DNA of 64,000 bases, from positions 55,121 to 119,120 of the IMG/VR virus record IMGVR_UViG_3300017911_002159; one strand, 5' to 3'. Position 1 is the stretch's first letter, and the number at the start of each line of letters is the position of its first letter. This DNA is from a virus (lineage: Duplodnaviria > Caudoviricetes). This document shows positions 117 through 59,191 of this stretch, piece after piece. Under the pieces are notes generated by a model, which searched no databases, had not been told where the DNA came from, and saw nothing but the letters and a program-made list of their open reading frames with translations. The position numbers were made by a program, and so were the translations under genes.

Positions 117-1502
117 ATGTCTTACTCGAAAAATTTTATTAGAGAATTTAGTATATCACTTCCCGGTGGCAGCAGCGGTTCAAAGGCCCCCGGTACTATT
201 TTTGGATTTGGTCAAAATATTGACATAGCTGGTCCTGCAGCATTTGTCTCAAAAAAAGCAACACAAGCTGCAATTGATACAGCTACCTCAAGAGAAAACT
301 TACTTAAGTTAGGTGCTGCTGCCTTAGTTGCTGGGGGAGCTTTAGGTTTAAGTGCAGGTCTTGGTGGTAGACTTGCAAACTTAGGAAGAAAGAAAGAAAT
401 TGAAGAAGATAGAGCATCTTCTCAGCAAGGTTACGAGGCACAAATAAATCAAGCTATTGCAGCGGCAGACCCAAGTGATTTGGATCCTGCACAAAATGCA
501 GCAAGAATTGCAGGGCCAGAGGGTCAGAAAGCAGTAGACGATGCTCTTAGATATGCAAATCCTGATACAACGAAGGGTGAGCAAGGTTTAAATCCTGTAT
601 CTAGGGCTGCTATTTCACAAGCCACAGGAATTAATATAGGCAAATTACCTAGAGCAGGAACTTTAGGCGGTGGAGATTCGGGAAATCCTCCTGCAGGTGT
701 TGCCGTTGCTACAAGGGCTGCTGCTAGAGCAGCCGCAGATGCTAGAGATGCATACAACGATCCCTCTACAGGCTATAAAAAAACAATTGATCAAACAATA
801 GCTAATATTAGAGGAACAAGATTCAATCCAACAGGTGGTGGTGGAACTAATCCAAGCATAGATTCTGACAGTCCTACTGTTAGAACCGTAGGTAATGCTA
901 TTTTAAATTCACCTATTGGTAAAGAGGGTGTAAGACAAGCTAAAATTGCACAAATTGGCACTCGAACAGGGGCTAAATCTCCAGATACTTTCATGGCTAC
1001 AAGACAAAATACTGGTGTCGATAGAGAAGTTTTAGACCCTTCATCATCTAATCTAAGAAATATAGCTTCTGCAGGTGCAAAAGTATTTGGGTCAAATGTT
1101 TCATTGCCTTCAGGTGATGAAGCTGCTTCAGCTATTCAATCGTTTAATCCAGCAGAATTGATGGGTCAAGGTGCAAGTGTACTCTCTGGAGTTTCGAAAT
1201 CAGCACAACCGTATATTAAGGCATATGGTGGTAATCCACTTAATTTAATTGGATTAGGAAGTAACTTTAGACCTTCTGTTGGTGATATAGCTGCTATGAG
1301 AGGCGAGTTAAGATCTAATTTAGCTCCAATTGCTAAATCTATTAACAGATCCATTGGTGATGCTGGCGGACAGTCAGGTCTTAACCCTGCTTTCGATTAT
1401 ATCAGAACTACTAAACCTGAAGATATTGCAAATGCAAGCCAACAATTCGGTGCAAATCCAACAAGATTTGCCAGAGCACAAAGAAATCTCGGAGCAAAAT
1501 AA
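117..1502 (+). CDS. Gly/Ala-rich putative head-internal protein with leader MSYSKNFIRE and glycine-zipper segment
   Basis: 461 aa, GGAGG RBS, late promoter, LGAAALVAGGALGLSAGLGG followed by RLANLGRKKE. Confidence 0.6.
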   Translation: MSYSKNFIREFSISLPGGSSGSKAPGTIFGFGQNIDIAGPAAFVSKKATQAAIDTATSRENLLKLGAAALVAGGALGLSAGLGGRLANLGRKKEIEEDRASSQQGYEAQINQAIAAADPSDLDPAQNAARIAGPEGQKAVDDALRYANPDTTKGEQGLNPVSRAAISQATGINIGKLPRAGTLGGGDSGNPPAGVAVATRAAARAAADARDAYNDPSTGYKKTIDQTIANIRGTRFNPTGGGGTNPSIDSDSPTVRTVGNAILNSPIGKEGVRQAKIAQIGTRTGAKSPDTFMATRQNTGVDREVLDPSSSNLRNIASAGAKVFGSNVSLPSGDEAASAIQSFNPAELMGQGASVLSGVSKSAQPYIKAYGGNPLNLIGLGSNFRPSVGDIAAMRGELRSNLAPIAKSINRSIGDAGGQSGLNPAFDYIRTTKPEDIANASQQFGANPTRFARAQRNLGAK

Positions 1503-1840
1503 TGAGTTATTCTAGAAGTTTAATTAGAGAAGTTACGGTTACAGCCACAAAAACCCAAGGCCCAACAATTGGACAAACTGGAACCACAGATGTTCCAGCT
1601 AGTCCTCTAGATGCTGATAAATTTAATGTAAGTGGTTTAGGTGCTGCTGGAGCAGATGCTCTAACAAAGACAGTAAGAAACATCGGTTCCGATTTGTTTG
1701 GTACAGGTGGCATTTTTACAAAACCAAAAAATATTGCAATTGCTGCTGCTGTCCCGTTGTCAATTGGAGCATTGAGTTCGGTTGGTAGAAGAATTGGTAA
1801 TATTGGTCGTAGAAGAGAAGAAGACAGAAGGTTCAGATAA
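1502..1840 (+). CDS. putative head-internal protein with leader MSYSRSLIRE and C-terminal hydrophobic/basic segment
   Basis: Coupled TAATG start; C-terminus resembles a segment of the 117 protein. Confidence 0.6.
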   Translation: MSYSRSLIREVTVTATKTQGPTIGQTGTTDVPASPLDADKFNVSGLGAAGADALTKTVRNIGSDLFGTGGIFTKPKNIAIAAAVPLSIGALSSVGRRIGNIGRRREEDRRFR

Positions 1841-2166
1841 TGTATAGCCGTAAACTTCTCAAAGAATTACAAGAAGCTGGTAAAGATGATCTTTACTACA
1901 GACAAGTAGATTTTGACCCCTATGCACCAAGATACACTGTTCCACAGTTAGCAACAACCGCAGGTGGTATAGCAGGAACAACCCTTGGTTCTCAGCTAGG
2001 TATGAGATTGGGCCAGTCTACAGGTATTCCCGGTGCTGGACTTGCAGGGTTAGGTATTGGTGGTGCTCTTGGCGGTGCCTTAGGTTCTATTGGTGCTTAC
2101 CAACTAGCAAAGGCTGCAAGACCTAAAAAGAAGAAGCAAAAGAAACTGATACAGTATTATAGATAA
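1840..2166 (+). CDS. glycine-zipper protein with leader MYSRKLLKE
   Basis: GxxxG repeats (GAGLAGLGIGGALGGALGSIG) then RPKKKKQKK. Confidence 0.65.
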   Translation: MYSRKLLKELQEAGKDDLYYRQVDFDPYAPRYTVPQLATTAGGIAGTTLGSQLGMRLGQSTGIPGAGLAGLGIGGALGGALGSIGAYQLAKAARPKKKKQKKLIQYYR

Positions 2167-2702
2167 TGTCAATTTCAGAATCACAACCAGCATCTTTAAA
2201 CTATATTCAACCGAATAATTTTACTTTTCGGATTAAAAGACTTCCTGACTTAAATTTCACAATTCAGTCCTGTAATGTTCCCGGCATTTCTGTTGGTAGA
2301 GTTGATCAGCCTAACCCTGTTCAGGGTGCACCTTTACAGGGCGACAGAATGTTTTTTGCAGATCTTTCGGTTGCTTTTCTTGTAGATGAAAACTTAAAAA
2401 ACTACCGTGAGATTTTTACTTGGATGAGCAGAATCACAAACCAAAGTTGGCATCCCGGTTCTTATCATTACAAAACTTTAAGAGATGCACAGCCGGGTGA
2501 TGATGTTGGTTTATTCTCTGATATCACAATGAATATCTTGACTTCTGCAAAAAATCCTAATATAAGATTAAAGTTTACTGATGCTTTTCCTATTCAGTTG
2601 TCTGATTTAATCTTTGACTCTCAATCAGATCCTTCTGCATTTGCAAAAGCACAAGTAGTATTTACTTATAAGGATTATGATTTTGAAGTCGTTGGTGGTT
2701 AA
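2166..2702 (+). CDS. 3: tail completion / tube terminator protein gp3
   Basis: NYIQPNNFTF..R.P..F..Q..VPGI..G, GD..F.DL.V.FLVDENL.NY.EI..W; synteny before uvsY. Confidence 0.85.
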   Translation: MSISESQPASLNYIQPNNFTFRIKRLPDLNFTIQSCNVPGISVGRVDQPNPVQGAPLQGDRMFFADLSVAFLVDENLKNYREIFTWMSRITNQSWHPGSYHYKTLRDAQPGDDVGLFSDITMNILTSAKNPNIRLKFTDAFPIQLSDLIFDSQSDPSAFAKAQVVFTYKDYDFEVVGG

Positions 2703-12274: not shown

Positions 12275-12292
12275 TCTCTAATTACATTTATG

Positions 12293-12300
12293 TATAAATA
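12293..12300 (+). promoter_or_regulatory. T4-type late promoter
   Basis: TATAAATA upstream of the hsp20 leader. Confidence 0.75.
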
Positions 12301-12785: not shown

Positions 12786-12790
12786 TCTTC

Positions 12791-27532: not shown

Positions 27533-27909
27533 ATGATGAACAAGCAATAAAGTCAATCAAACTCACTTCTGGTGAGGAGATTGTCGGTGTTGTGCATGAG
27601 ATTTCTGAGTCTTATGTAGAAGTCCAAAGTCCTTTTGTTGTTAGTAAGACAATGGGATCTTCCTTTATGTTGTTGCCTTGGATGATTACGTCTGAAATCA
27701 ATCAGATTCACTCCATCAACATATTAAATGTATCTTCTGTAGCTGAATCATCTTCCGATTTTCTTAGAGCTTACATAAAAGTTATTAAAGAAAATGCAGA
27801 AGACGAAGACCAAGAATTCGAGGTCAAGTCTTTAGATGAGTTTGATGAAGAAATGGAAGAAGAAGAGGAGGAGTTAGATATGACTCCTCCTGATACTACC
27901 GTCCACTAG
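27529..27909 (+). CDS. Sm-like-fold T4-like hypothetical with acidic tail
   Basis: IKLTSGEEIVG, L.PW, ends DTTVH. Confidence 0.65.
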   Translation: MNDEQAIKSIKLTSGEEIVGVVHEISESYVEVQSPFVVSKTMGSSFMLLPWMITSEINQIHSINILNVSSVAESSSDFLRAYIKVIKENAEDEDQEFEVKSLDEFDEEMEEEEEELDMTPPDTTVH

Positions 27910-28253
27910 TATCTAACACGGCCTAGTGCATCGAATCCTAAACGTGGCAGACTATAAGAAAATTTCGGTGCAGGAATATCTGCTCTAGTAAGTGGTTTGC
28001 CCATATTAGAGAATGCTCTCACACCCGGAGAAATTTCAGGATACTGTCTTGCTGGCTGTGCAGGTTTGAAGGCAGCATTTCTTGGAGGATTTGGACCAGA
28101 CAGCCCACTTCCGATTTTAGGATGACTTGCACCAGTAATATCATCAGGAGTGAATCCCGGAGGCAGTTCTTCTTCTGCCATAACTGCTGGTCTTAAAGCA
28201 GCAAGACCAAATTCCATCAAAGTCTCTTTTCCTAAAAGAAGTTTTTTACTCAT
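27906..28253 (-). CDS. Pro-rich putative head-internal protein (leader ...KETLME)
   Basis: Last gene of coupled minus-strand late cluster. Confidence 0.55.
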   Translation of the reverse strand: MSKKLLLGKETLMEFGLAALRPAVMAEEELPPGFTPDDITGASHPKIGSGLSGPNPPRNAAFKPAQPARQYPEISPGVRAFSNMGKPLTRADIPAPKFSYSLPRLGFDALGRVRY

Positions 28254-28714
28254 GCTTCGCCAATCCTTGTTTTTGCTACACTAACTCCGGAAAGTGGTTT
28301 ATTGCTTGCTACAGCTAAACCTAATCCTCGTCCCTTATTTATTCCGATTTGAAGTCTGTTAAGAATATTTGATTGCAGACTTCTTCTTTCGTTGTTTCTC
28401 ATTTGCCGACCAACGGTATCCACAAGACTTTTTTCGGGATCTAACGTAGTATTTCTAGATCTGTTCAAAACAGAAGCAACAGGACCAACCAGAGCTAAAG
28501 ATGCTAAACCTGCTGCACCAGTTGCTAAAAGACCCTTGTTGCTTTTAGCTAAACCCAAAAGACCGCCTTGTCTTGTGTTAGGTCCGTAGTTGTAACCAGA
28601 AGCTTGTCTTGCCACGTCAACCGGAGGAGTGTTGATGACAGGCTTACCCATAATCATGTTTGTTACAGGGTTTTCGTTTAGAACTTCTTCTTTAAGCTGC
28701 TGGTATGTTTTCAT
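28250..28714 (-). CDS. putative head-internal protein, leader MKTYQQLKEEVLNE, TM segment
   Basis: Close match to T4 CTS MKTYQEFIAE; GLLATGAAGLASLALVGPVASVLNRSR. Confidence 0.65.
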   Translation of the reverse strand: MKTYQQLKEEVLNENPVTNMIMGKPVINTPPVDVARQASGYNYGPNTRQGGLLGLAKSNKGLLATGAAGLASLALVGPVASVLNRSRNTTLDPEKSLVDTVGRQMRNNERRSLQSNILNRLQIGINKGRGLGLAVASNKPLSGVSVAKTRIGEA

Positions 28715-29436
28715 TAGAGAACATCCTTATACAATCTCTCAAACTCTTCATCGGTGAGTCTGTTACGAATAGCTGAAATATTTACATTTTCATCTTCGAT
28801 AGCATCTAACAGAATAGTACGAGCCATCGTTTCATCACCAGCATCTAAGGCATCACCAATCTCATCAGCAATCCTTCTATTTCTAAGAACTTTCATAATT
28901 CTTGGTGTTGCTCTTCTCATAGCTTCGACAGAACCAGCAAAAACAGCTATAAGAATTAATACAATAGTTACATTTACTTTCAGCCAAGCCTGTTGTCCTT
29001 CCGGTAAAGGCAAACTTTCAATTGCTTTATCATATGCACCTTTTAATGCACTTAATGCACCTAAGACAGCAGAAAATGCTAAAGAAAAAGCAGTTGCTGC
29101 TGCAGTAGCCCTAGCTCTAGCAAACTTCCAAACCTCAGCAACAAGTGATACTAATCCTCCCCCTGCTAAGGCTAATAATCCTTTTTGAGTAAGGTCTATG
29201 CCAATTCTACCCTGTAGACGTGAGCCACGGGGTGTTAACGAACCGGGTTTGTCTGCTTTGTAAGGCTCATTTCTTGTATAAGATAGTTTTCTTTTATCAA
29301 GAGCACTTAAAACATTACCTCTAGGAGGTCTTCCTTTAAATCCTGTTATATATGCACGGGGAGATTGGAAGGCAAGATTTCTTGGAGGTCTTCTTTGCTC
29401 CATCATTTCTCTTAACACATCTTTTGAGTATGACAT
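28714..29436 (-). CDS. multi-TM protein with leader MSYSKDVLRE
   Basis: Three hydrophobic segments separated by basic patches. Confidence 0.6.
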   Translation of the reverse strand: MSYSKDVLREMMEQRRPPRNLAFQSPRAYITGFKGRPPRGNVLSALDKRKLSYTRNEPYKADKPGSLTPRGSRLQGRIGIDLTQKGLLALAGGGLVSLVAEVWKFARARATAAATAFSLAFSAVLGALSALKGAYDKAIESLPLPEGQQAWLKVNVTIVLILIAVFAGSVEAMRRATPRIMKVLRNRRIADEIGDALDAGDETMARTILLDAIEDENVNISAIRNRLTDEEFERLYKDVL

Positions 29437-30191
29437 CAGTACTGCCCTCTGTTTAATCTATTGGCATTTCTTCTTTTAATAGCTTGATAATAGTCATAGT
29501 TATATGGTCTTAGGGGGCCAGCTTTATCAAGTATACTTTTTAATCCTTTTAATCCAGTCATAACTAGATTTACAGGACTCTCTGTTATAGGTCTTGGCTT
29601 TGGAATAGGGAAACTGACTGGTACAGTTCTGGTAGGCTTTAGTCTGTCTAATGGGTTCTTATCTGGTCTATTTGATGGAGCATATACACCAATAGATGGG
29701 TCGGGATTGTTTGGATCTGGGCCATCACCGACACCAAAATAGTTTATACCTTGTATAGTTCTAGTAATTGGTTTGGTAGCAGGAGGATCCATATAGATTT
29801 TATCACCGCTTCTATAATACGTTATTGGTCGTGGCTTTACTTTACTAGCAAGATAAGCACCACTAATGCTTGTGCCATCACCAATGTCTACTAGATTATC
29901 ATCATTAAACTGTTGTTCCGAAAGAGTCATTGCACCTAATTTCATTATCTGTTCGTTAAATCTTACAGAGTCCACAAAATCATCTGGAGATGCTGTAAAT
30001 TCAAAATCATTTTTTACGTAGTCGTTAAAGAATCTACCAGCAGAGTCTGCATTAATAAAATCATTGTAAACATCTTCAGGCACGTTGATGTAAGTGTAGT
30101 TTTTGCCAGAACCAGCAAATCTTACATTCATCTTTTTAGTCTTTTTGTTGTACGTGACCTTAGTGATGGCCGAAGAATCGAGTCTAGGCAT
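29436..30191 (-). CDS. KTSC-domain protein with Pro-rich extension
   Basis: SSAI..V.Y......V.F..G..Y.Y..VP..VY..F..A.S.G.FFN..VK. Confidence 0.8.
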   Translation of the reverse strand: MPRLDSSAITKVTYNKKTKKMNVRFAGSGKNYTYINVPEDVYNDFINADSAGRFFNDYVKNDFEFTASPDDFVDSVRFNEQIMKLGAMTLSEQQFNDDNLVDIGDGTSISGAYLASKVKPRPITYYRSGDKIYMDPPATKPITRTIQGINYFGVGDGPDPNNPDPSIGVYAPSNRPDKNPLDRLKPTRTVPVSFPIPKPRPITESPVNLVMTGLKGLKSILDKAGPLRPYNYDYYQAIKRRNANRLNRGQY

Positions 30192-30670
30192 TAGATAAAT
30201 CTATTTTTCTTTTTTCTTTTGCCGCCCTCAGAAGGAAGCTTTGTTGTACCAGTGGCAAAATATCTTGCTGTACGACCACCAAGACCGACACCTTTTCTAA
30301 TACCGTAACCAGTGCCTTTGATTAGACCATAGGTTAGACCTGCAGTACCGCCAGCAAGACCACCCATCGTGACATAATTTGGATTTCCTGTTAAAGCTTG
30401 AGCACCAAGACCCATTAAACTACCAAGTGCAGCACCGCCAAGAGTACCGGCAGCGGCTCCACCAAATGCACCTAAAGGAGCTGCTGTAGCACCACCATAG
30501 TATCGACCAACATTAAGGCCAATTCGACCAGTTGTTGTTTCTGGTGTGTCCATTTGTTCTGGCGAAACCATTACGTCAGATCCAAGTCTTGTAGAAAATG
30601 GATTGATAGTGCTGCCCTTTTTCTTTTTCTTTCCTCTAGCTTCTTGAATGGCCATTCTTGAGTAAGACAT
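30191..30670 (-). CDS. glycine-zipper protein with leader MSYSRMAIQE
   Basis: GAFGGAAAGTLGGAALGSLMGLG and GGLAGGTAGLTYG; poly-Lys at both ends. Confidence 0.65.
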   Translation of the reverse strand: MSYSRMAIQEARGKKKKKGSTINPFSTRLGSDVMVSPEQMDTPETTTGRIGLNVGRYYGGATAAPLGAFGGAAAGTLGGAALGSLMGLGAQALTGNPNYVTMGGLAGGTAGLTYGLIKGTGYGIRKGVGLGGRTARYFATGTTKLPSEGGKRKKKNRFI

Positions 30671-30671: not shown

Positions 30672-31094
30672 TTAATATCTCCCGTCTCTTTCTAACTCCG
30701 CTGCAATAGCATTAGCATAATCGATATCTGCTGCTCTAGAACCAGCTATAGCAGAGCCAAGTCTTGATCCTGCCGCTGCACCAAGCACGCCAAGACCTAC
30801 CTGTGCCAGACCTGTAACTTTTCCTTTAGTAAAGGCATCTTGACCACCAACACTTGCACCGTATTTGCCGCCAGCCATTATACCTAAAGCAGTTCCAGCT
30901 AAGGCACCGATACCACGACCAACAAGTCTTCTTCTATCAGACTTTCTTTTTTGGTCTGTTACTTGTGGATCGATATCAACAAACTTTCTTTTAAAAGCTA
31001 CCTGTGGAGCAGAAGATTCATAGACACGATGATGTCTTTGTTGTTTTGTGGGCGAAAAAGCTTCTTTGATAGCTTCATTACATGCTTGACACAT
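30672..31094 (-). CDS. glycine-zipper protein with leader MCQACNEAIKE
   Basis: RRRLVGRGIGALAGTALGIMAGG, GLGVLGAAAGSRLG; AAGGAG RBS. Confidence 0.65.
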   Translation of the reverse strand: MCQACNEAIKEAFSPTKQQRHHRVYESSAPQVAFKRKFVDIDPQVTDQKRKSDRRRLVGRGIGALAGTALGIMAGGKYGASVGGQDAFTKGKVTGLAQVGLGVLGAAAGSRLGSAIAGSRAADIDYANAIAAELERDGRY

Positions 31095-31115: not shown

Positions 31116-31583
31116 CTATTTAGGTGGATTGGCAGTATTCTGAACGTTTCTTATGGCTTGAGCAGGTGTGCTGATTTTAAAACGATTCAAACCAGCTTGA
31201 ATTAAAGCACTTGCATCAGAAGGAGAGAAAGAAGCTCCTTCAACACCTTGCCTAGATGCAGCAAAGTTAGCCAAACCTCTTGCTTGTTCAGCCCCTGTAT
31301 AAACCTTAGCAGCACCTAATCTTGCAGGAGAAGACGTTTGGTAAGGCGGCTCTTGAGGTTTCTTACCAAAAAGACCAAACAGTTCGTAAAGTCCTTGTTC
31401 GATGAGTTGTTCTTTTTTCATTGGAAGTCCTTTATGTTTTGTTGAAGCATATTTTTCGATATCTTTTAGAGTCATAGAATCAGCAGCTTTTTTTACGTCT
31501 GCTGATACGTCTTTCACTTCACCTCTTTTGTAGGCGAGTACAAGACCAAAAAACTTTTGTTGTTGTTTTGATACTGCTGGCAT
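31116..31583 (-). CDS. DUF3008-like N-domain plus extension
   Basis: MPAVSKQQQKF.G...AYKRGE...SMT.K...YASTKHKGLP.K; LIE/LYE sites at the junction. Confidence 0.65.
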   Translation of the reverse strand: MPAVSKQQQKFFGLVLAYKRGEVKDVSADVKKAADSMTLKDIEKYASTKHKGLPMKKEQLIEQGLYELFGLFGKKPQEPPYQTSSPARLGAAKVYTGAEQARGLANFAASRQGVEGASFSPSDASALIQAGLNRFKISTPAQAIRNVQNTANPPK

Positions 31584-32144
31584 TTAAATTACCTCGAATA
31601 AGTTTCTACCGAATGATCTAACAACATCACCGTCTTGAGAGATCATAATTCTTTGCATGTCTCTAAGCTTGGTGTCTGTAAGGTGTCTTCTTCTCATACC
31701 TTGTGCTAAGAAGATATGAACTTCTATTGGATCGTCACCTTCAACTTCTTGAACGGCAACCATTCTGTTTCTGCCTTCATGGTTCATGACTTCTGCAGGT
31801 TGATCACCCTCTTCATCAACCCTTACGATTAAGAAAGGAGCACCGATAGCTTCTCCGTCCCTTAGTTCGTTAGCAATAGAGGAAGCAGATCTAGCAAAGA
31901 AGTTTCTTCTTTCGGCAAGTTCTAAGAAAACAGATGGTTTCATAAGAGTTCTGACGCCAAGATAATCGACTTCTTGGTTATCAGGTACAGCACCCATTCC
32001 TCTGACATTATCGATAACGACTTCTTTAAGAGCTTTAAGACCTTCATTCATGATGGCAGCTTTTTTGATGTAAGGAACACTTCTTGTTCTAAAGTCTGTG
32101 CTACGTCTGCCGTATGGATTGATAGGGTTTCTTTTAAATCTCAT
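31584..32144 (-). CDS. ParB/Srx-like domain protein
   Basis: IGAPFLIV....V..HEGRNRM. Confidence 0.5.
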   Translation of the reverse strand: MRFKRNPINPYGRRSTDFRTRSVPYIKKAAIMNEGLKALKEVVIDNVRGMGAVPDNQEVDYLGVRTLMKPSVFLELAERRNFFARSASSIANELRDGEAIGAPFLIVRVDEEGDQPAEVMNHEGRNRMVAVQEVEGDDPIEVHIFLAQGMRRRHLTDTKLRDMQRIMISQDGDVVRSFGRNLFEVI

Positions 32145-32146: not shown

Positions 32147-32293
32147 TTATCTCTTTCTCATGGTTATGAGTCCGAGTCCTCTGTTAGGATTACGTGACTT
32201 AATAGGAATTCTGAGAGGATTAGGATTAGCAAGAGGATTGGTGACTGCTTCTCTCAGAGCTTTGTAGCCTATTTCCATAAGTCTTCTGGACAT
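32147..32293 (-). CDS. 48-aa basic peptide with leader MSRRLMEIGYKALRE (not in ORF track)
   Basis: Coupled TAATG start; leader nearly identical to upstream gene. Confidence 0.7.
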   Translation of the reverse strand: MSRRLMEIGYKALREAVTNPLANPNPLRIPIKSRNPNRGLGLITMRKR

Positions 32294-32697
32294 TATCTTG
32301 GTCCTTTTTTTGCATTAGATTTAAAGATGCCTTGAGCAATAAATGGATCTTGTCTCCTTGGGATGTCACCCTCAATATCTAATTCTCTTCTTGCAGAATC
32401 AAACTCATCTTTGTAAACACCCCGCTGACCTTGAAGTTCACTATATGCATTTTGCCTCATTCTTTCATATGCTTGATTTTCTAATTTGGGGGGAAAATTG
32501 TAGTCAGGATACTTTTTAGTCAGGTCTGCAGCGGGTTTAGTAACACTTTTAACCACTTCATCCCCCGGATTACCTGTCATAAAAGTATTCATATTACGGG
32601 CAAATCCATCTTTTGACACAGCAGTAGGAGATCTCATGTGCATTTGCTCTCTTTCTCTCAGAGCTTTGTATCCCATTTCCATCAATTCTCTAGACAT
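32293..32697 (-). CDS. putative head-internal protein, leader MSRELMEMGYKALRE
   Basis: First gene after minus-strand late promoter. Confidence 0.6.
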   Translation of the reverse strand: MSRELMEMGYKALREREQMHMRSPTAVSKDGFARNMNTFMTGNPGDEVVKSVTKPAADLTKKYPDYNFPPKLENQAYERMRQNAYSELQGQRGVYKDEFDSARRELDIEGDIPRRQDPFIAQGIFKSNAKKGPR

Positions 32698-32727: not shown

Positions 32728-32735
32728 TATTTATT
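32728..32735 (-). promoter_or_regulatory. late promoter variant
   Basis: AATAAATA on minus strand ~30 nt before ATG 32697; second variant CCTAAATA at 31117-31124. Confidence 0.6.
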
Positions 32736-45341: not shown

Positions 45342-45349
45342 CATAAATA
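45342..45349 (+). promoter_or_regulatory. late promoter variant
   Basis: CATAAATA. Confidence 0.65.
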
Positions 45350-45378: not shown

Positions 45379-47763
45379 ATGAAAAATTTTTCCAGTTTAA
45401 AAGAAGAAATTTGTTTAGAATGTAGTCTTACAGAAGCTACACAGGTTCCTACACCACCAATAGAGGGAGGTGTAGACGTAGAATCTTGGTTTAGATCATG
45501 CAAAATGCCTGAGTTTGGCACTCCTTTATTTTTAATTCTTTATTGGTATATGGCTTATGCTGGTGTTTATCTTGATCATGGAGAAGATTCTGAAAAAAGT
45601 TTTCCTGAGCAAAAAGAAGAGAGATTGAAATTTTTTTATGACATGGAAAGATTGGGCTGGTTAGATGAATATCCTCAAAGAAACCCTAATATTCAATGTA
45701 TTTCCAATGCTCTTGTAAAGGTTGTCAATACACCAATTAGTGCTTTTGACACTAATGAAGATCCTTTAAATAGGAGAACATATTCTTACGGTTCTTCTGT
45801 TGATTCTCCTATAGGAATTGATGTCAGTGCTCCAGCAGACTTTCAGGAGATATGGAAGGAACTTCCCGGTAATACCTTATTGATGAGAGAAGTTGAAAAA
45901 CAGGCTCGTCTTGATTCTAAAAGACATGAATCTATGACTCAACTTCCAAGACCTATGGTACAACGTATACGAGAAACTGATCCTTACAATCACCAAATAA
46001 CTTATGATAAACATTTTTTTAATCATATTCTTCAATCTATGGCAGATTCGGATGAAGTTTATGAAACAAATACTTTAAGAGATCCTGTCTTACAGTTAGC
46101 TATGATGGGTGATCCTAAGGGACCACAATATGCTAATATGCCAAAAATTAAATTTTCAAAAACAAGCTATGGCTCTGTTCATCTCCCGATTAGAGGTCAA
46201 TATGAACAAGGAGAACCAGATCGAATAACGTTAAATTATATCAGATATCTTTTTAATGATGGTCCAAATGGTGTACAAGGTTTAGCAAGAACATTAGCAC
46301 ACGAATTTAGACATAGAGCATTTAATATAATTTTTGATAATGATGAAATTTATAAAGAGATGCCACCAGAGCTTAAGCAAGGTGGTAAATGGTATGGTTC
46401 TTGGGGTGGAAACTATAATGGTGGTCCAGATATCAAGGGTGAAAATGGCGAAACTGTAGAACATGCTATGATTTATTGTCAAGATCAAGAAGATGTTTTA
46501 AATTCAAGAGCTGCTAGCTTTGTCACTTTCTTTAATCAAGACTTATATCCTCCTGCATATTGGAGAGATTTATATGCAAAGGTAAGTCAGGGTGTTGGTC
46601 GGTACTTAGCACAATTTGCTAAGGTGCCTACACGAAGACCTACTACTGGAATTCCACCGCATATTAAACTTCCCGATGCATCGCCAGAAGAAGTTAAAAG
46701 AAGAGCAGAAAAAAATGCAAAGGATATGGAAAAAAGACATCTTTTGCCAAAATTGCAATCAGATGCTGTTGTAAGAGAAATGTACAATAGATTGAATCTG
46801 TACGAATTTGGGTCGATCGATTATAACCCCAATAGAGCACAAACTATAGCAAGTATTATCAATAGACTTGATTCAGAAAGGGGTGCTATTGAAATATTCT
46901 TAATGTTTAGGTTTATTGCGTTAAAATTTTCTGGCGACAAGAAAGAAAAACAGTTAGTTCCTGCTCTCAAAAGATTATTGGGTGAGTGGGAACTTGAAGT
47001 CTCGATGAAAGGTAATTGGTACAAAGCAAAAATATACCCACAAAGAATGTTGAGAATTTCTAAAGCTGCTGGTGCTGATTTAGGTGATAACGAAGGTAGA
47101 CTTGAAGATTGTATTAAAAAATTTGATGAGTTGGAGAGAGAAATTAAGAAAAAGCATCCTGAGGGTTGGAAATATTTCTCTTACGATTATATCGAAAAAT
47201 ATTTAAGAAGAAATCCTGATTATGATCCCTTCAACCCTACTGGTGAGCCGACTCCTCCTGTAAATGCTCCTAAACCGGTAGCTCCGACACCGACAACACC
47301 GGTAACTCCTGCTACACCAGCCACACCAATTTCTTCTGGCAGAGGGACACCTGCTACTGCTCCGCCAGAAGAAAAGAAGAACCCTTGGGAAAATATTTTT
47401 ATTTCCAGTAGAAAAAGAAGAACAGGACCAAGACAACCATCTTCACCGACTACAATTGAAAGACCAGTAGACAAAAAGTTGATTGAAAAAATTCGTGACA
47501 TTATTGATAATATCAGAAAGGAAAAGCCTTATCTTGGCGATAGAGCACTTATAGCTGGTGCTGTTGTTGCTGTTGTTGCTGGCGGTTTCTTTGCTTTCAG
47601 AAAATATCTTTTTGATAGAAAGACACAAAGAGTTGCTTCTACGGTTCTACGTGACCCTAAGTCTAGAGATATGATACAAGATCTTAGAAAGCGTGAAAGA
47701 AGAAGAGTGCTTGAACTTTTAAAAGATAAAAACTTTAGAGAAAGAGTTTTAGCTGAAGTCTAA
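45379..47763 (+). CDS. zincin-like (HExxH) protein with CTS-like leader, Pro/Thr linker and C-terminal membrane anchor
   Basis: MKNFSSLKEE..SLTEA; TLAHEFRH; PTPTTPVTPATP; ALIAGAVVAVVAGGFFAF-RK; start moved out of the tRNA. Confidence 0.7.
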   Translation: MKNFSSLKEEICLECSLTEATQVPTPPIEGGVDVESWFRSCKMPEFGTPLFLILYWYMAYAGVYLDHGEDSEKSFPEQKEERLKFFYDMERLGWLDEYPQRNPNIQCISNALVKVVNTPISAFDTNEDPLNRRTYSYGSSVDSPIGIDVSAPADFQEIWKELPGNTLLMREVEKQARLDSKRHESMTQLPRPMVQRIRETDPYNHQITYDKHFFNHILQSMADSDEVYETNTLRDPVLQLAMMGDPKGPQYANMPKIKFSKTSYGSVHLPIRGQYEQGEPDRITLNYIRYLFNDGPNGVQGLARTLAHEFRHRAFNIIFDNDEIYKEMPPELKQGGKWYGSWGGNYNGGPDIKGENGETVEHAMIYCQDQEDVLNSRAASFVTFFNQDLYPPAYWRDLYAKVSQGVGRYLAQFAKVPTRRPTTGIPPHIKLPDASPEEVKRRAEKNAKDMEKRHLLPKLQSDAVVREMYNRLNLYEFGSIDYNPNRAQTIASIINRLDSERGAIEIFLMFRFIALKFSGDKKEKQLVPALKRLLGEWELEVSMKGNWYKAKIYPQRMLRISKAAGADLGDNEGRLEDCIKKFDELEREIKKKHPEGWKYFSYDYIEKYLRRNPDYDPFNPTGEPTPPVNAPKPVAPTPTTPVTPATPATPISSGRGTPATAPPEEKKNPWENIFISSRKRRTGPRQPSSPTTIERPVDKKLIEKIRDIIDNIRKEKPYLGDRALIAGAVVAVVAGGFFAFRKYLFDRKTQRVASTVLRDPKSRDMIQDLRKRERRRVLELLKDKNFRERVLAEV

Positions 47764-48216: not shown

Positions 48217-48738
48217 CTATTCAGGTCTCTTCCTAAAAGGATTAAGGCCACCAAGACCAGAAATATCAAGGTTTGTAACTCTTTCCCTACCAGCAGCATA
48301 TGCATCGCCAGCAGCTTGACCCATAGCACCAACACCAGCACCGTATCTTGTTGCAAGGTTTTGAGCACCACGGAAAGTACGACCCATCATTCTTTCGCCT
48401 TCAGGTGCAGCAGCATATTCTGTGCCTTTAGGTGCAAATGCCAGAGGAGCAGCGGCAGCAGCCAGACCAGCACCGATGAGAAGTGCTTGTCTCAGACGAC
48501 GACGACGACGAGCCTTACGGCGGCCACCATCAGCTTCGTTCAGGTTGTCTTCATCGTCTTCCATGTCCATCTCATAAAGAGCTTCGTCCATCATCTGGGC
48601 TACAGCTTCTTCTTCTTCATCGGACATTTCATCCATCATTTCCTCTTCTTCACTTTCGTAAAGATGGCCGTAACGGATTTGCTGCATAGCTTCAGTAATT
48701 GCTTGGTAACCACGGTCACCACTTGTGTATCTTCTCAT
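48217..48738 (-). CDS. late protein: acidic pro-region, poly-Arg, hydrophobic segment
   Basis: AGGAG RBS; AITE/HLYE/ALYE/NLNE sites; RRKARRRRRLRQALLIGAGLAAAAAPLAFA. Confidence 0.7.
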   Translation of the reverse strand: MRRYTSGDRGYQAITEAMQQIRYGHLYESEEEEMMDEMSDEEEEAVAQMMDEALYEMDMEDDEDNLNEADGGRRKARRRRRLRQALLIGAGLAAAAAPLAFAPKGTEYAAAPEGERMMGRTFRGAQNLATRYGAGVGAMGQAAGDAYAAGRERVTNLDISGLGGLNPFRKRPE

Positions 48739-51337: not shown

Positions 51338-52200
51338 TGAAAATTGCTATTTGTATCAGTGGACAGCCAAGATTTGCTAATTTTGGGAACTATCATCAAA
51401 AGAAATTTGCAGATCTTCTTCCTTATGAAGTTGATTTCTACGTTCAATCTTGGTCCCAAGAGGGTGTTGAAGAGAATAGAGACAAACTTTTTGAGATTTG
51501 TGACCCAAAGGCGGTAAGAATCGATAATGGTTATGTTGCTTTAGAATATCCCGATCATTTTCATAAAAATAGGGGTTTATCTCAGCATTATGCTCACTAT
51601 CTGTGTATGCAGCAAATTAAAAACATTGATGATTATGATCTTATTCTAAGAACTCGTCATGATATTATGTTTAATACTGAATTTATGGATTATTGGGTAG
51701 ATTTGCTTCAATATGTAAACAAACATAAAGGAGTGTCTGGTGCTGGATACTACCCAGATTATTCTGATCACCCTCAGCTTTCTACTTTTACGAGTGGACC
51801 TTCTCATCGTGGTTATAGCAAATATCCTTCTTTTGACGATTGGACGATTGTTGCACATCGTGATCACTGGTCTAAGTTTAGGACTGACGAGACAAGATTT
51901 TTGGAGATTTTAGATGAAATGTTTCACAATGAGAGAACATTTCACACTTCAAGCACTTACGAAGTAGATGGTAAAAAGCATCCAGTCGTTATTCCGGAAC
52001 TTGTCTGGTACAACCTTACAAACTTAAATCTTGGAGACCCCTTTACAGTCGGTAAAGGGTTTGTTTACGCCGCTAGGCCAAGTCTAAAGAGTATTATCGA
52101 CAAACATTACACCCTATACACTCCAACTGACCTTAGAAATGCTTTGAAACGGGGTTGGCAGAATGGTTCAGCCGTTCTTCAATATAGCATCTTCTTGTGA
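51337..52200 (+). CDS. putative glycosyltransferase
   Basis: KIAICISGQPR, YDLILRTR.D. Confidence 0.6.
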   Translation: MKIAICISGQPRFANFGNYHQKKFADLLPYEVDFYVQSWSQEGVEENRDKLFEICDPKAVRIDNGYVALEYPDHFHKNRGLSQHYAHYLCMQQIKNIDDYDLILRTRHDIMFNTEFMDYWVDLLQYVNKHKGVSGAGYYPDYSDHPQLSTFTSGPSHRGYSKYPSFDDWTIVAHRDHWSKFRTDETRFLEILDEMFHNERTFHTSSTYEVDGKKHPVVIPELVWYNLTNLNLGDPFTVGKGFVYAARPSLKSIIDKHYTLYTPTDLRNALKRGWQNGSAVLQYSIFL

Positions 52201-52208
52201 TATAAATA
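52201..52208 (+). promoter_or_regulatory. T4-type late promoter
   Basis: TATAAATA. Confidence 0.85.
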
Positions 52209-52236
52209 GTCATGAATTCTTTTAAAAGAGGTAATC

Positions 52237-53223
52237 ATGATTTCCTACTCACAACTTACAGAAGAGTCTTACGTTAAGACGGCACTCGATTTTGAGTATC
52301 TTGCCGAAGAAACACAGCCGGTCAGAAAGGCAAAACGTAGTGAAGCTGAATTGACCAAAAGAAACGTGGCAAACAATAAAGCTAGAGAAGAAATTTCTAA
52401 GAATGAAGTTAAGATTGCTACAATTAAAAAGAACCAAGAGCAATACGTTGCTAGAATGGAAAGAGAGCGGGAAGAAATTTCTTCAGACAGATCCTTAGAA
52501 GCGGATCAAAGAAGAGCAAAAATTTTAAGACTCGAACAAATTATTGCTAGAGAAAAACAAAAGTCTGATTTGCAAATTAAAGAGCTTGAGCAGAGAAATC
52601 TGACACAAAGAGAAGAAATTAGACTCAGAACTGAACAGCAAAAACAAATTAATTTAGAGACTACAAAAAGACTTGAAGCAGAGCAGCAAAGAGAAATTAG
52701 AAAGGCTGAGCAATCCTTTGATGATCTGTTTCTAGATGCTGCAAAAGGGACTGTCAGAGGTGTCGGTCAAGCATCAGCTTATACAATCAAATCAATGTTT
52801 TCGTGGATTGCACAAAACCCTAGAGCAGCAGGTGGTGTGGGTGCTGCAATTGTTCTTGATCAAATAATCTTTAATAATGCTCTCATGAAAGCTATTCCTT
52901 TCATGCCCAAGAGTGGACTAATTCCGGGCTTCTTCAATTTCATTATTGGTAAAATTACCGGAGCTTTTAGTGCAATTACTACTGGTGGAATTTTAACAAT
53001 TCTTAGCGGTTTGATTACTCCAATTGCTATTTTAGCTGCATCTGGTGTTGGACTTTATGTGTCTTACCGACTTATTCGAATCTTTTTAGATCTTGGTGAA
53101 GCAAAGGCTATGCAAATTGCTAGAAAGCTTGAAACAGCTTCAGAGGAAGAAACAGAGGAAATTCTTCGTAAAGATCTTAAGTTAAATACACGTAATCTTA
53201 AAAAGCAAAGGGCGGCAGCATGA
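52237..53223 (+). CDS. coiled-coil plus multi-TM protein, leader MISYSQLTEE
   Basis: ~130-aa charged coiled coil, then long Gly-rich hydrophobic region. Confidence 0.65.
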   Translation: MISYSQLTEESYVKTALDFEYLAEETQPVRKAKRSEAELTKRNVANNKAREEISKNEVKIATIKKNQEQYVARMEREREEISSDRSLEADQRRAKILRLEQIIAREKQKSDLQIKELEQRNLTQREEIRLRTEQQKQINLETTKRLEAEQQREIRKAEQSFDDLFLDAAKGTVRGVGQASAYTIKSMFSWIAQNPRAAGGVGAAIVLDQIIFNNALMKAIPFMPKSGLIPGFFNFIIGKITGAFSAITTGGILTILSGLITPIAILAASGVGLYVSYRLIRIFLDLGEAKAMQIARKLETASEEETEEILRKDLKLNTRNLKKQRAAA

Positions 53224-53600
53224 AGACGTACAACAATATGCTCAACGAGATTGCACCTTTAGCTATCTCTCCAATGACTGCTTTTTTGGGTGTTGGTGCA
53301 TTAGCTGGTGCTTTTGTGGCTGTCAAAGAGCTTATTACAAGCACCATTAGAGGCGGCGTTAAGTTTATCATCAGAAACCCTATCCCTGTGGCTGTGGCAG
53401 CTTTAGCTTATGATCAGTATTTTCATCAGGGTAAGGGAAGAACAGCACTGTTTAAATATTTTCAGAAATCCTTCCCCGGCCAAGCTAAGATCTTTTATGA
53501 TGGTTTGGTAGATATTGTAGTGACAAAAGAAATTACTCCTGATAAGGTTGCTGACATGGTTACCAAAATTGCAGCCGAATTTGACAAAATGAAGGACTAA
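53220..53600 (+). CDS. membrane protein with leader MKTYNNMLNE
   Basis: CTS-like leader then AFLGVGALAGAFVAV. Confidence 0.65.
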   Translation: MKTYNNMLNEIAPLAISPMTAFLGVGALAGAFVAVKELITSTIRGGVKFIIRNPIPVAVAALAYDQYFHQGKGRTALFKYFQKSFPGQAKIFYDGLVDIVVTKEITPDKVADMVTKIAAEFDKMKD

Positions 53601-55900: not shown

Positions 55901-56483
55901 AAAATTTTTTGTTTTCGGCCTTCAAAAATCAGGCACAAAATACTTAAAAAGGCTTGTTGAAGTTAACACAAATTTAAAATTTAAGACAAAGTATGTTTGG
56001 AAGCATACTATGAATCCTGTTGATTTTTTCGAGGATGATGTCCAAAAATTTTGGATTACTAAATCGCCATATAATTGGGCAAACTCTGTAATCAAAAGAC
56101 ACAGAGTAGATATTCTTACAAAATACAAAAAATATAATCTTAAAGAAGAAGATGGATTGGTTGTTCGTGGCATTAACGTAAAGAATCTAATTACGTTGTA
56201 CAACCATTACCACACTATGCTAATTAATACTGGTTTAGAAAACATTCGTTATGAAGAACTTCTTAAGAACAATTTAAGATTTTTCAAAGATTTGTACAAA
56301 AAAGATGTTTGTGAGGTTAAAATGCCTCCAATACAAGATGTTAGTAATTCTAAATTTTACATAGAAGAAGCAACAAGACTTGAATATTTGTCTGAACCCA
56401 GAAAAAACGATCCATTAGTTTTAGAAATCAATAAATACATAAACAAGGATCTTATCACTAGCTTGGGTTATAAAATAGCATAA
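55887..56483 (+). CDS. sulfotransferase-like protein
   Basis: GLQKSGT, WKH, K.PY.W..S, IRYEELL. Confidence 0.65.
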   Translation: MDTSKKFFVFGLQKSGTKYLKRLVEVNTNLKFKTKYVWKHTMNPVDFFEDDVQKFWITKSPYNWANSVIKRHRVDILTKYKKYNLKEEDGLVVRGINVKNLITLYNHYHTMLINTGLENIRYEELLKNNLRFFKDLYKKDVCEVKMPPIQDVSNSKFYIEEATRLEYLSEPRKNDPLVLEINKYINKDLITSLGYKIA

Positions 56484-57763
56484 TGGCTGAAAAAAAGAAA
56501 AGAAAGATCAATCCAAAGGTTAAGAAGGCTATTGAGGCAAGAACACTTCTTGGCGGTATTCCAGATGTGGTGAATCCTCACCCCGAATATAAAGTTAGGA
56601 TGGAAGCAGTATATCGTTCATCTATTGGTTCAGGAAACCAGAGAAGAGTTATTGCTTCTAGAAATGCCAGCAAAAACACTGCGGCCCTTAAGAGAGCTTC
56701 ACAGTTGGCTAAAATTGCTAACCCCACATCTAAAGAGAATAGTGAAGAAGCTGAAGGCAGAGCTATGGGCTTAGTAATGATGGACGTAGCAAAAGAGGTT
56801 GGTGTTAAAGACCCTCAGGCCATGACTGACTCAGAATATGAATATGTAATGAATGTTTCGATACAAAAGCAAGACTCTTTTAGAAACTACTATGATAAGA
56901 TGTTACGTGACATTTTAGATAGGCAGAACAACCGTGGCGATATCAAAGAATCTAAAAAAGAAGTTGAACAAGACCCTGACGTTGAGGACATGCCCGGTAC
57001 GCAGCCGAAGAAGTACTACAAAGACGTTGACAAAGAAGACAAAGAGGCAAGGGCAGAGAAGTTCAGGACAGGCTCTAAGTCTAAAGATGATGATGAAACC
57101 GCTTACGAACCAGCACCCGGCGATGAGGATGCTGAGACGAAACCAAGCAAGTATACAAAAGCTTATGACAAAAAGTTTAAAAAAGAATCCTTAGACATTA
57201 CGGAAGCATTTAACAAAGGTGTGAGAAAGAAGGCTAAGGAAACTGGCATTCCTTACTCCATTCTTATTCAGGTTTTCAAGAGGGGTAAAGCTGCTTGGAA
57301 GACTGGCCACAGACCCGGCACAACACCTGATCAATGGGCATTTGCTCGAATCAACTCTTTTGCAACTGGCGGTAAAACCAGAAGAACTGCTGATAAGGAT
57401 CTTTGGAAAAAGTATCAGGAATACAAAAAGAAGAAGAAAAAGAAAAAGACAAAGAGTGAAGAATATTTGGAAGAGGCCAAGTATCAGGGAAAAACTGTCA
57501 AGTTAGGAGACCCAACAAGAAATCCTTCAGGCAGTAAAAAGAAATTCAGAGTCTACGTTACTCATCCCCAAACAGGAAATGTTGTTAAAGTAGAATTTGG
57601 CGATCCAAATATGGAAATTCGCCGTGATAATCCCAAAAGACTTAAATCATTTAGAGCAAGACACGGTTGTGATGTCCTTACATATGAAGACGACCGACAC
57701 ACAGCTAAATACTGGTCATGTAAGATGTGGGAAAAAGGCAAGAAGGTATCGGATCTGGACTGA
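56483..57763 (+). CDS. multidomain late/virion protein with internal (I/L)xE junctions
   Basis: AAWKTGHRPG..PDQWAFARINSF; EAKYQGK..KKKF.VYV..V.FGDPNM..SFRARH.C..YWSC. Confidence 0.75.
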   Translation: MAEKKKRKINPKVKKAIEARTLLGGIPDVVNPHPEYKVRMEAVYRSSIGSGNQRRVIASRNASKNTAALKRASQLAKIANPTSKENSEEAEGRAMGLVMMDVAKEVGVKDPQAMTDSEYEYVMNVSIQKQDSFRNYYDKMLRDILDRQNNRGDIKESKKEVEQDPDVEDMPGTQPKKYYKDVDKEDKEARAEKFRTGSKSKDDDETAYEPAPGDEDAETKPSKYTKAYDKKFKKESLDITEAFNKGVRKKAKETGIPYSILIQVFKRGKAAWKTGHRPGTTPDQWAFARINSFATGGKTRRTADKDLWKKYQEYKKKKKKKKTKSEEYLEEAKYQGKTVKLGDPTRNPSGSKKKFRVYVTHPQTGNVVKVEFGDPNMEIRRDNPKRLKSFRARHGCDVLTYEDDRHTAKYWSCKMWEKGKKVSDLD

Positions 57764-57969
57764 TGAGAAAAAGAATCTACGAAGAGCCATTAACTGGTGG
57801 TCCTAGTGCACTTAAGACAGCAACAGATCTGGTTGCAACCGGTGATCCTGTCAAAAGGAGTGCCGGTCTTTTAGCCATTGGAGCTATGGCTTTGACACCT
57901 TTTGCTATTGAGTATGGAATTAGAAGAGCAAGAGAAGAAGCAGGCAGAGTTAAACGTAGCCTTGTCTAA
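57763..57969 (+). CDS. small membrane protein with leader MRKRIYEE
   Basis: Coupled TGATG; AGLLAIGAMALTPFAI then RRAR. Confidence 0.55.
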   Translation: MRKRIYEEPLTGGPSALKTATDLVATGDPVKRSAGLLAIGAMALTPFAIEYGIRRAREEAGRVKRSLV

Positions 57970-58009: not shown

Positions 58010-58516
58010 ATGGCTTTATGGGGCAACAAAGACGATAAAACGTCTACCGGTACAATCCAAGTATTTGCTAATGGACTTGTTACAGGTACCGGTACTAAGT
58101 TTGATACAGAGGCTAAAGTAGGGGACATTCTTAGACCTGATGCCGGTGCTGCAGCAAACGATCATATTATTATTTCTTATACATCTAACACTCACGTCAA
58201 CGTGATTGCAGCTAAGCCCGGAGATTCTGTTACGGCTATTGCTGCTGGTGCAGATTACTTCTTGAGCGAGCGACCAATCTTTCCTTCTCAAGCAGAGTCT
58301 GGTTCCTCTTCTGGTGTTCACGGTGACACAGAAAAGGTTTTTGGTGTTGATACAACTGAGATGGGTGTAACTGACACAAATGGACATGCTGGTTGGGTAA
58401 GACGAATTGCTAAGACAGACATGCACGGCAACAGCAGAGTAATTTACGAAACTTTAGTTGCTTCCTCATCCATCTCCGGCGATGCTGCCGATGATACGGA
58501 ATTCCCTGACTCCTAA
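58010..58516 (+). CDS. putative virion structural protein
   Basis: MALWG.KD, FGVD..E, HAGWV, ETLVA, D.ADD..FPD; AATAAATA upstream. Confidence 0.65.
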   Translation: MALWGNKDDKTSTGTIQVFANGLVTGTGTKFDTEAKVGDILRPDAGAAANDHIIISYTSNTHVNVIAAKPGDSVTAIAAGADYFLSERPIFPSQAESGSSSGVHGDTEKVFGVDTTEMGVTDTNGHAGWVRRIAKTDMHGNSRVIYETLVASSSISGDAADDTEFPDS

Positions 58517-58518
58517 GT

Positions 58519-58914
58519 ATGGATCTTAAAATTGATGAATCAAACGTGCTGCTTTATGCAGCACGTTTTTATGACAATCCAAGTTGTTTTGATACCGTTG
58601 AATTTTATGATGATCTCAAAAGAATTTCATACATAAAGAGACTCTTCAACAAGTATAAAGAAACTGGTGATATGAAGGATAGACTTGTCCTAAATCACCT
58701 TATAGTTCTCTACAACGTGTTTGGGAACTTTACCAACAAACTTCTTTTCTTAAAATTAGAAAAATATCTGGATATTTTGATGCCCTTTTTGTTGGTATTA
58801 CATAAGTGTCCAGAAGAAGTTAAAAACATTGGCGTGACCAACAAAACCTTTTTTACTTCCGACATAAATATGGATGAAACGGTCGTAGAAATATTGAGAA
58901 AAAAACATGGTTAA
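58519..58914 (+). CDS. conserved T4-like hypothetical protein
   Basis: YDNP.C...EF.DDLKR..YIKRL, RL.LNHLIVLYNVFG. Confidence 0.75.
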   Translation: MDLKIDESNVLLYAARFYDNPSCFDTVEFYDDLKRISYIKRLFNKYKETGDMKDRLVLNHLIVLYNVFGNFTNKLLFLKLEKYLDILMPFLLVLHKCPEEVKNIGVTNKTFFTSDINMDETVVEILRKKHG

Positions 58915-59191
58915 TGCTAAGGCAAATATCCGAAAATACTTTTTAAAAGAAGAAGCTCCAGCAAACGTTGCTGGTGGTGGACATGTTGCTGGAATCGGTG
59001 TCGGGCCTCAAGGAGAACCCGGCATTTCTGTTTCTCAACAATTTAGATATGCAAACAACGTAATGGATTTTCTAATTTCTAAGGATGAAGAAGAACAGGA
59101 AGATCCAATTCAGCTTAAAAGAAGTGACAAGTTTCATAATTCTACACTTCTTGATTCACAAAGAATTGCAATGAAACTCTTAAGAAGGTGA
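58907..59191 (+). CDS. T4-like hypothetical protein (..FLKEEAPAN..G)
   Basis: EEAPANVAGGGHVAG.G....EPG. Confidence 0.65.
   Translation: MVNAKANIRKYFLKEEAPANVAGGGHVAGIGVGPQGEPGISVSQQFRYANNVMDFLISKDEEEQEDPIQLKRSDKFHNSTLLDSQRIAMKLLRR

Follow-up and report, generated by a model that had tools for sequence, protein, structure and literature searches.

The window analysed here, 64,000 nucleotides at positions 55121-119120 of the viral record IMGVR_UViG_3300017911_002159, is the second half of one 119,120-bp contig which, judged by its genes, is from an uncultured marine T4-type myovirus akin to Melnitz and the pelagimyophages. It contains sixteen open reading frames (ORFs) that begin with a short leader ending in (I/L)-x-E, as does the capsid-targeting sequence (CTS) of the internal proteins (IPs) of phage T4. 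An earlier note had gathered these genes as a family; all 16 of the N-termini it quoted were recovered at their coordinates and strands, each with a plausible ribosome-binding site (RBS) upstream, and each candidate has an [IL]xE-type site within residues 7-19. The leaders can be sorted into class A (MSYS[KR]xx[IL]xE), class B (MKTY/MKxF...[IL]xE, T4-like), class C (MS[KR]xL..G.KAL[KR]E) and class D (MCxACNEAIKE). We consider it probable that about a dozen late proteins of this phage bear modular CTS-like propeptides, by which they would be packed into the head and trimmed.

Among the 170 genes called with a simple coding-potential and RBS model, a bare [IL]xE ending at residues 6-16 is present in 38, compared with 19 expected from interior windows (p 3e-5). 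A stricter motif with the geometry of the T4 CTS, that is Tyr/Phe at residues 2-4 and [IL]xE with Glu at residues 9-11, occurs in 10 of the 170 where 1.39 would be expected (p 1.7e-6); nine of these ten are among the 16 candidates, while the tenth, at 15394, is UvsX-like and counts as an expected false positive. The triplet 'SYS' stands at residues 2-4 of five genes and is found only nine times in 37,700 interior residues. Since the copies use different synonymous codons (e.g. Ser AGT vs TCT/TCA), it is the peptide that is conserved. Stripped of their leaders, the mature parts share merely a low-complexity Gly-zipper similarity and are not homologous to each other. The ORFs are therefore dissimilar beyond the leader as the earlier note had said, except that those at 1502 and 1840 are halves of one gene in relatives; the leaders of 32293(-) and 32697(-), which it listed separately, are both present but paralogous to each other. 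These observations leave little room for the idea that the leader is the recognition sequence of a modifying enzyme, as in ribosomally synthesized and post-translationally modified peptides, a translation-initiation feature, or a product of chance or paralogy. A CxxC in two leaders would suit enzymatic modification, but a search of the 119-kb genome for the radical-SAM family PF04055 was negative, with the 14 controls positive. The codon differences place selection on the peptide, and both an enrichment far above chance and the lack of mutual homology between mature parts speak against the remaining variants, so that we hold the whole set of explanations to be highly improbable. The CxxC lies just before the cut site, in MCQACNEAIKE (31062-31094 (-)) and in ..ICLECSLTE (45379-45435 (+)), and distant homologues (proteins P0047-P0050, P0058, P0059) also have one before the site (..CAVCNHLFE, ..CTCCYPHLSE). 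In the propeptide it might bind a metal or make a disulfide.

The genome encodes a prohead protease (genome positions 52032-52688; PHROG 207, E 6e-81; PDB 5JBL, E 8e-22; Peptidase_S77) with 41% identity to T4 gp21. The His of its GELGHP and the Ser of its GVSTRG align with T4 GELNHP and GVSSRG, and the crystallised chain 5JBL has Ala at both positions. From the T4 literature we take this His and Ser to be the catalytic pair of gp21. Sites of the kind it would cut are found in the head proteins themselves: gp23 has LLE followed by AAPAN, where T4 gp23 has LTE followed by AEIG, the gp67-like protein has IAE at residue 13, and the N-terminus of the protease, MKLITELNE, resembles the T4 Alt propeptide MELITELFDE. 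In the T4 genome (NC_000866) IPII and IPIII start with MKTYQEFIAE, the 19-residue leader of IPI ends in ITE|AT and gp24 starts with MAKINELLRE. The T4 precedent on which the earlier note relied, namely this IPII/IPIII leader and gp21 cleavage after L/I-x-E (PMC9026906), is thus correctly stated. Targeting of IPIII needs only the first 10 residues, and within the CTS residues 4 and 7 count for targeting and residues 8 and 10 for processing (PMC9026906). A further T4 gene, 61.1 (NC_000866 18966-19130 (-), 54 amino acids, hypothetical, adjoining the primase gene), starts with MKTFKEFIKE and so resembles the IP leaders.

Comparison with metagenomic relatives indicates that the leader behaves as a unit distinct from what follows it. 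Twenty leader-bearing homologues of 28714-29436 were compared: their mean pairwise identity is 0.77 over residues 1-10, drops to 0.17 over residues 11-30, stays at 0.22-0.26 as far as residue 130 and is ~0.8 within the C-terminal domain. The fall comes exactly after Glu10. Across 27 sequences of this family, including forms in which the leader is internal, M1, S4, K5, L8 and E10 do not vary. In homologues of the 461-aa protein (81-88% identity) M1, S2, Y3, S4, K5, I8 and E10 are invariant and positions 6, 7 and 9 vary. In the minus-strand cluster, gene order and leader classes are kept in relatives while the cargo has diverged or been replaced, and one relative (L100) has an additional MSYSRIAIKE gene there. 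The leader of 30672-31094 is kept in L101 and L102 while the sequence after it diverges, and that of 27906-28253 is kept in L100 and L101, 5′ of the start given in the gene calls of the source. Relatives also have the same leader in front of other cargo (at L100 535-852 and in the hypervariable gp23-gp3 slot). When the 794-aa protein was used in an exhaustive HMMER search, 22 cluster representatives were obtained, at 27-50% identity, and most of these distant homologues again start with a short leader ending in [ILV]xE (MKKFS...LTE, MRYREIINE, MRYKDFKIVE, MKTFSELTE and others). In IMG/VR, no relatives turned up for the proteins at 117, 52237 and 48738.

The genes at 1502 and 1840 provide a case of gene fission. 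In L006, L009 and six IMG/VR contigs they form a single 207-aa gene with the layout leader, variable part, module A, KKLKE and module B. The present genome and L070 have it split in two, with the second part starting with MYSRKLLKE and MYSKNLINE, respectively. As the second gene starts with an MYS(K/R)-type leader after the split, each separately translated piece has a leader of its own. The converse arrangement is seen in several metagenomic relatives, where the KTSC gene (29436-30191) and the next leader gene (28714-29436) are one ORF. These fused forms keep the internal leader, its invariant Met and an in-frame Shine–Dalgarno-like GGAG before it, which may reflect internal initiation or a polyprotein.

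The mature parts contain 16 internal [IL]xE sites compared with 24.9 in composition-matched shuffles (P 0.014), with 10 of the 16 lacking any, and their density of 0.52 sites per 100 residues compares with 1.20 genome-wide. The opposite is observed for the scaffold (12 vs 6.2 expected), the protease (9 vs 3.9) and gp67 (4 vs 2.1), all enriched about two-fold. Such a depletion is the pattern expected if the candidates meet the protease yet are meant to survive. On account of it we rejected the possibility that they are core or scaffold proteins degraded to peptides in the manner of gp22, gp67 and gp68.

The mature parts are mostly basic (isoelectric point 9.3-10.9) and Gly/Ala-rich, with a Gly-zipper or hydrophobic segment and a Lys/Arg cluster. 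In the ESM Atlas, the model of the 461-aa protein is disordered (predicted local distance difference test, pLDDT, 0.41) and no usable neighbours were found. For the 240-aa protein, AlphaFold2 on a 27-row alignment (mean pLDDT 62) predicts that the leader is helical, that residues 16-96 are disordered and, with confidence, that the C-terminal part is a bundle of helices; the Foldseek matches in the PDB were limited to helical bundles of a generic or designed type (best E 0.28), and we therefore assign it no fold. PHROGs, Pfam and NCBIfam scans of the 16 candidates gave no family and no enzyme or anti-defence domain, a PDB sequence search with the 794-aa protein found no function, and BLASTP of the candidates against a six-frame gene call of T4 gave no match. 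Membership of the mature parts in the T4 IPI, IPII or IPIII families was rejected, there being no PHROG, Pfam or BLASTP similarity. With such properties the cargo could consist of filling proteins associated with the DNA or of ejection proteins that act on membranes.

It could be argued that these proteins are indeed targeted to the prohead and cut, yet serve structure or assembly (core filling, charge neutralisation, control of head size or pressure) instead of acting on the host. Their high isoelectric point, Lys/Arg clusters, disorder and low complexity are what such a role would call for; one group lies directly after gp23, 53220 resembles a gene of phage DLP6 situated between portal and protease, and the library scans returned no enzyme or anti-defence domain. 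However, the true core proteins, scaffold and gp67, are enriched in internal sites where the candidates are depleted, and the loci are hypervariable among close relatives, which is better suited to host-interaction genes. A purely structural role hence appears unlikely to us.

Hydrophobic or Gly-zipper segments followed by basic clusters, found in most members, raise another alternative, that of late membrane proteins for lysis, superinfection exclusion or head anchoring, with the N-terminus as a cytoplasmic tag whose cleavage would at most free the proheads. T4 proheads do assemble on the inner membrane (PMC9026906), and the DLP6 look-alike of the 53220 leader (..KTYNDLINE|VAP..) is annotated 'holin'. 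That label is unsupported, and the gene lies inside the head module, between portal and protease. Moreover, the proteins at 117, 32697, 28253 and 58907 have the leaders without strong transmembrane (TM) segments, each leader stops precisely at the protease motif, with T4 spacing, two of the classes are near-copies of T4 IP leaders, and internal cut sites are depleted. A TM segment is also compatible with ejection, as the ejection protein SPN3US gp47 is reported to have a cleaved propeptide and to keep a TM segment once mature (PMC5694885). Taken together, we find the membrane alternative very unlikely.

ATAAATA-type boxes are located 24-45 nt 5′ of the ATG of 117, 32697(-), 45379, 48738(-), 52237 and 58907; for comparison, the sheath, gp67 and scaffold genes have such boxes 21-36 nt 5′ of their ATG. 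The promoter-type boxes that the earlier note had placed ahead of the blocks were confirmed at 117, 32697(-), 45379, 48738(-) and 52237, whereas its box at 31117(-) is merely CTAAATAG. The strong candidates stand first or close behind such late-promoter-like boxes, and going by this motif the candidates may be expressed late, with the head genes.

The coordinates of the candidates and of the features around them are compiled in the table. Of the 16 candidates, about 13 have good support and three (57763, 48738(-) and 58907) have less. The start of the gene at 45379 is the ATG, a longer TTG start being ruled out by the tRNA gene at 45257-45330. Beyond the 16 candidates, sites are also carried by gp67 and the protease, both outside the window, and by the internal MNEGLKALKE of 31584-32144; a relative's copy of the latter protein begins with MSKKLILGGIKALKE where MNEGLKALKE stands. 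After their L/I-K-x-E, the protein of 58907-59191 and that of Melnitz MZ577097 22687-23205 both read (E/D)APAN..G..VAG, which closely resembles how the mature gp23 of the respective phage begins (LLE|AAPAN.. here, LSE|AAPTN.. in Melnitz). The two proteins may mimic the gp23 cleavage region or N-arm.

Table. Candidate leader genes and neighbouring features in the window (grade: strength as a candidate, 'good' denoting a leader kept in relatives; TM, transmembrane).
Feature	Position	Strand	Grade	Remarks
Late-promoter-like box TATAAATA	85..92	+		Heads operon 117-2166; preceded by hairpin and T-run after gp23
461-aa protein, class A MSYSKNFIRE	117..1502	+	strong	Basic, largely disordered; Gly-zipper insertion at residues 12-92
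112-aa protein, class A MSYSRSLIRE	1502..1840	+	strong	Module A: Gly zipper and basic tail
108-aa protein, leader MYSRKLLKE	1840..2166	+	strong	Module B; leader over conserved internal L-K-E
Terminator-like hairpin	27891-27866	-		End of minus-strand cluster
115-aa protein, leader MSKKLLLGKETLME	27906..28253	-	good	
154-aa protein, class B T4-like leader MKTYQQLKEEVLNE	28250..28714	-	strong	Orphan
240-aa protein, class A MSYSKDVLRE	28714..29436	-	strong	Disordered linker; conserved helical/TM C-terminal domain
251-aa KTSC-domain protein	29436..30191	-		Without N-terminal leader
159-aa Gly-zipper basic protein, class A MSYSRMAIQE	30191..30670	-	strong	
140-aa Gly-zipper protein, class D MCQACNEAIKE	30672..31094	-	good	
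155-aa DUF3008 protein	31116..31583	-		Without N-terminal leader
186-aa protein	31584..32144	-		Residues 32-41, MNEGLKALKE, precede conserved VVIDN
48-aa protein, class C leader MSRRLMEIGYKALRE	32147..32293	-	good	
134-aa protein, class C leader MSRELMEMGYKALRE	32293..32697	-	good	Same leader heads cluster in relative L101
ATAAATA late-promoter-like box	32728..32734	-		Heads ten-gene minus-strand cluster
ATAAATA box	45343..45349	+		Just 3′ of tRNA gene
794-aa protein, 19-aa leader ending SLTE	45379..47763	+	strong	T4 IPI-like layout; C-terminal hydrophobic anchor
173-aa protein, ITE at residue 16	48217..48738	-	moderate	Acidic pro-region, then Arg cluster and TM segment
ATAAATA box	52202..52208	+		Heads genes 52237 and 53220
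328-aa protein, leader MISYSQLTEE	52237..53223	+	strong	Charged Glu/Lys/Arg-rich repeats and TM
126-aa hydrophobic protein, class B MKTYNNMLNE	53220..53600	+	strong	
68-aa protein, start MRKRIYEE	57763..57969	+	weak	
94-aa protein, LKE at residue 15 then EAPAN..	58907..59191	+	moderate	Resembles gp23 cut site

The two ends of the contig (genome positions 1-305 and 118816-119120) repeat over 305 bp with 6 mismatches and, because of this terminal repeat, the genome is probably complete at ~118.8 kb and circularly assembled. The repeat stands against both labels of the record, linear according to IMG/VR and 66% complete according to CheckV. The gp23 protein shares 71% identity with its counterpart in Stenotrophomonas phage DLP6 and 63-66% with those in Methylophilales phage Melnitz (65%), Pelagibacter phage Mosig and cyanomyoviruses. 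Upstream of the window are found genes for sheath, tube and portal, a gp67-like gene, a 460-aa orphan, the Peptidase_S77 prohead protease, scaffold and gp23. The orphan (genome 50653-52035), in the gap between gp67 and protease, resembles the 794-aa leader protein in a C-terminal hydrophobic module, at 45% identity over 56 residues; in relatives its slot is occupied by an unlike protein of 512 residues which starts with MSKVKKLLLGRGMKTE. Rfam detects a permuted two-piece transfer-messenger RNA (tmRNA) of alpha type at window positions 24665-24946 (+) with 92 bits, although an ARAGORN search of 24000-36000 did not find it. An alpha-type permuted tmRNA has been described for Melnitz-like phages (PMC9004378).

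How far do these data go towards the earlier proposal that the proteins are packed into the head, matured by proteolysis and injected with the DNA? Part of it is supported. Since the leaders are T4-like tags that end in a head-protease cut site, the proteins are probably packed in the head and trimmed, and may enter the host along with the DNA. For targeting and trimming by the protease, to which we would give good odds by analogy with T4, several independent if indirect lines argue: the gp21 homologue with its catalytic residues, the geometry of the leader, its conservation apart from the cargo, the fission case, the site depletion and the late-promoter-like boxes. Several points weigh against this interpretation. 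The main uncertainty is the nature of the cargo, which is unlike the compact soluble internal proteins of T4; strongly hydrophobic segments are present in the mature parts of 28714-29436, 52237, 53220 and 45379, and these count against packing in a soluble core because they normally direct proteins to the membrane. When 50,697 records of cultured phages were searched by tblastn, neither the 461-aa nor the 794-aa protein nor one distant homologue had a match. The test for site depletion is of modest strength (P 0.014), and the operon-based contrast between late and non-late genes is only weakly significant (p 0.035), owing to the dense packing of genes and a permissive operon walk. The [IL]xE specificity of the protease would follow from that of T4 gp21 and from the conservation of sites. 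Finally, the bare [IL]xE also matches UvsX-like, gp41-like and other replication genes and is therefore not diagnostic by itself. The expectation of the earlier note that the leader motif would set these genes apart from replication genes thus fails for the generic motif, which is frequent there as well, and holds for the stricter leader classes.

By analogy with T4, the following sequence of events can be proposed. The first 9-19 residues of about a dozen late proteins, in four recurring classes, would constitute a modular propeptide that docks the fresh protein on the scaffolding core during prohead assembly. The gp21-type serine protease would then cut behind the Glu, the released mature protein would stay in the head with the DNA, and it would exit together with the DNA when the phage infects. 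The data themselves show the leader pattern, how it is conserved and where it lies in the genome, and that the protease is encoded; the steps from docking and cleavage through retention in the virion to ejection, and an action of the cargo in the host, are inferred. A bolder version, which we put forward as speculation with the odds clearly against it, is that this marine T4-like clade loads basic Gly-zipper proteins, released by the protease, which upon ejection would disturb the envelope or membrane of the host or become inserted in it, instead of soluble anti-restriction proteins; the short leader classes would then be a 'postcode' predicting the injected proteome of uncultured phages from sequence. 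If the leaders act as in T4, the genome of an uncultured ocean phage would by itself reveal which proteins it brings into the host, the hosts of this phage's relatives including OM43 and SAR11. A cargo that is basic, disordered, rich in Gly zippers and encoded at hypervariable loci differs from the T4 kind and points to an unstudied step of early infection. The fission and fusion cases together with the depletion of cut sites amount to sequence-only tests that can be used on any phage with a gp21-type protease.

When the scan for the strict motif was applied alike to six genomes, the 10 matches of this genome (1.4 expected) compared with 9 in Melnitz (1.2 expected, p 5e-6) and 8 in T4 (2.05 expected), the latter including IPII, IPIII and gp61.1. 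No significant excess was seen in Syn9 (4 vs 1.6 expected), Mosig (2 vs 1.4) or DLP6 (2 vs 1.6). The cargo had been described as unusually large, and so it is relative to T4, Mosig, Syn9 and DLP6, but not relative to Melnitz. As the excess in Melnitz is similar, the trait is common to at least one other marine T4-like phage, though it is not universal among them. In Melnitz (MZ577097) the CTS-like starts MQGFKTFLSE, MINFSKYITE, MKKFSEIIE, MTRYNKTMSE, MKNFKNHIAE and MKTFAELQE belong to hypothetical genes at ~12.2-19.8 kb, 21.3 kb and 65.9 kb. Compared with the present genome its leaders are of the MK(K/N/T)F type and its proteins larger and partly enzyme-like, and it does not have the MSYS class, which was seen in this genome and its close relatives only. 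Within the Melnitz late operon of large hypothetical proteins with CTS-like starts (12203-19789), the gene at 14914-16866 has a nucleotidyltransferase-type GRFNPPTTGH and a C-terminal part homologous to window 56483-57763. The Melnitz paper (PMC9004378) does not mention internal proteins or CTS-like starts, and in the open-access literature we found no paper linking the CTS to cyanophages or pelagimyophages. Melnitz, as a cultured relative, offers a direct experimental route.

Among other systems, the giant phages phiKZ and SPN3US also have a gp21-like protease that processes many head proteins after Glu at a short motif, but their propeptides mostly exceed 100 residues while those described here are T4-sized. 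The hyperplastic IP loci of T-even phages (PMC3012670, PMC9026906) resemble the present ones in having variable cargo behind a conserved leader. Here it is the gp23-gp3 slot and the minus-strand cluster that swap, split and fuse cargo with leaders retained, and genome position, leader sequences and type of cargo differ from the T-even loci. We know of no description in T-even phages of fission or fusion of two-module genes with a leader gained by each product. The closest likeness is to the T4 CTS itself: a propeptide of 9-19 residues ends in (I/L)-x-E, has an aromatic at 3-4, I/L at 8 and E at 10, and is common to otherwise unrelated, mostly basic late proteins in a genome that encodes a gp21 homologue. 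Class B (MKTY..) is near-identical to the T4 sequence, and the leader of 45379, ending LTE|AT, parallels the 19 residues of IPI ending ITE|AT. On the other hand, T4 has neither the dominant MSYS[KR]xx[IL]xE class nor classes C and D, the carriers number ~9-13 here compared with 3-4 in T4 by the same scan, and the cargo, known here from sequence, is without homology to T4 IPs, much of it combining Gly-zipper or TM-like segments with disorder where T4 has compact soluble folds. Judged by these likenesses and differences, the leader family is best regarded as a variant of the CTS/internal-protein system of T4.

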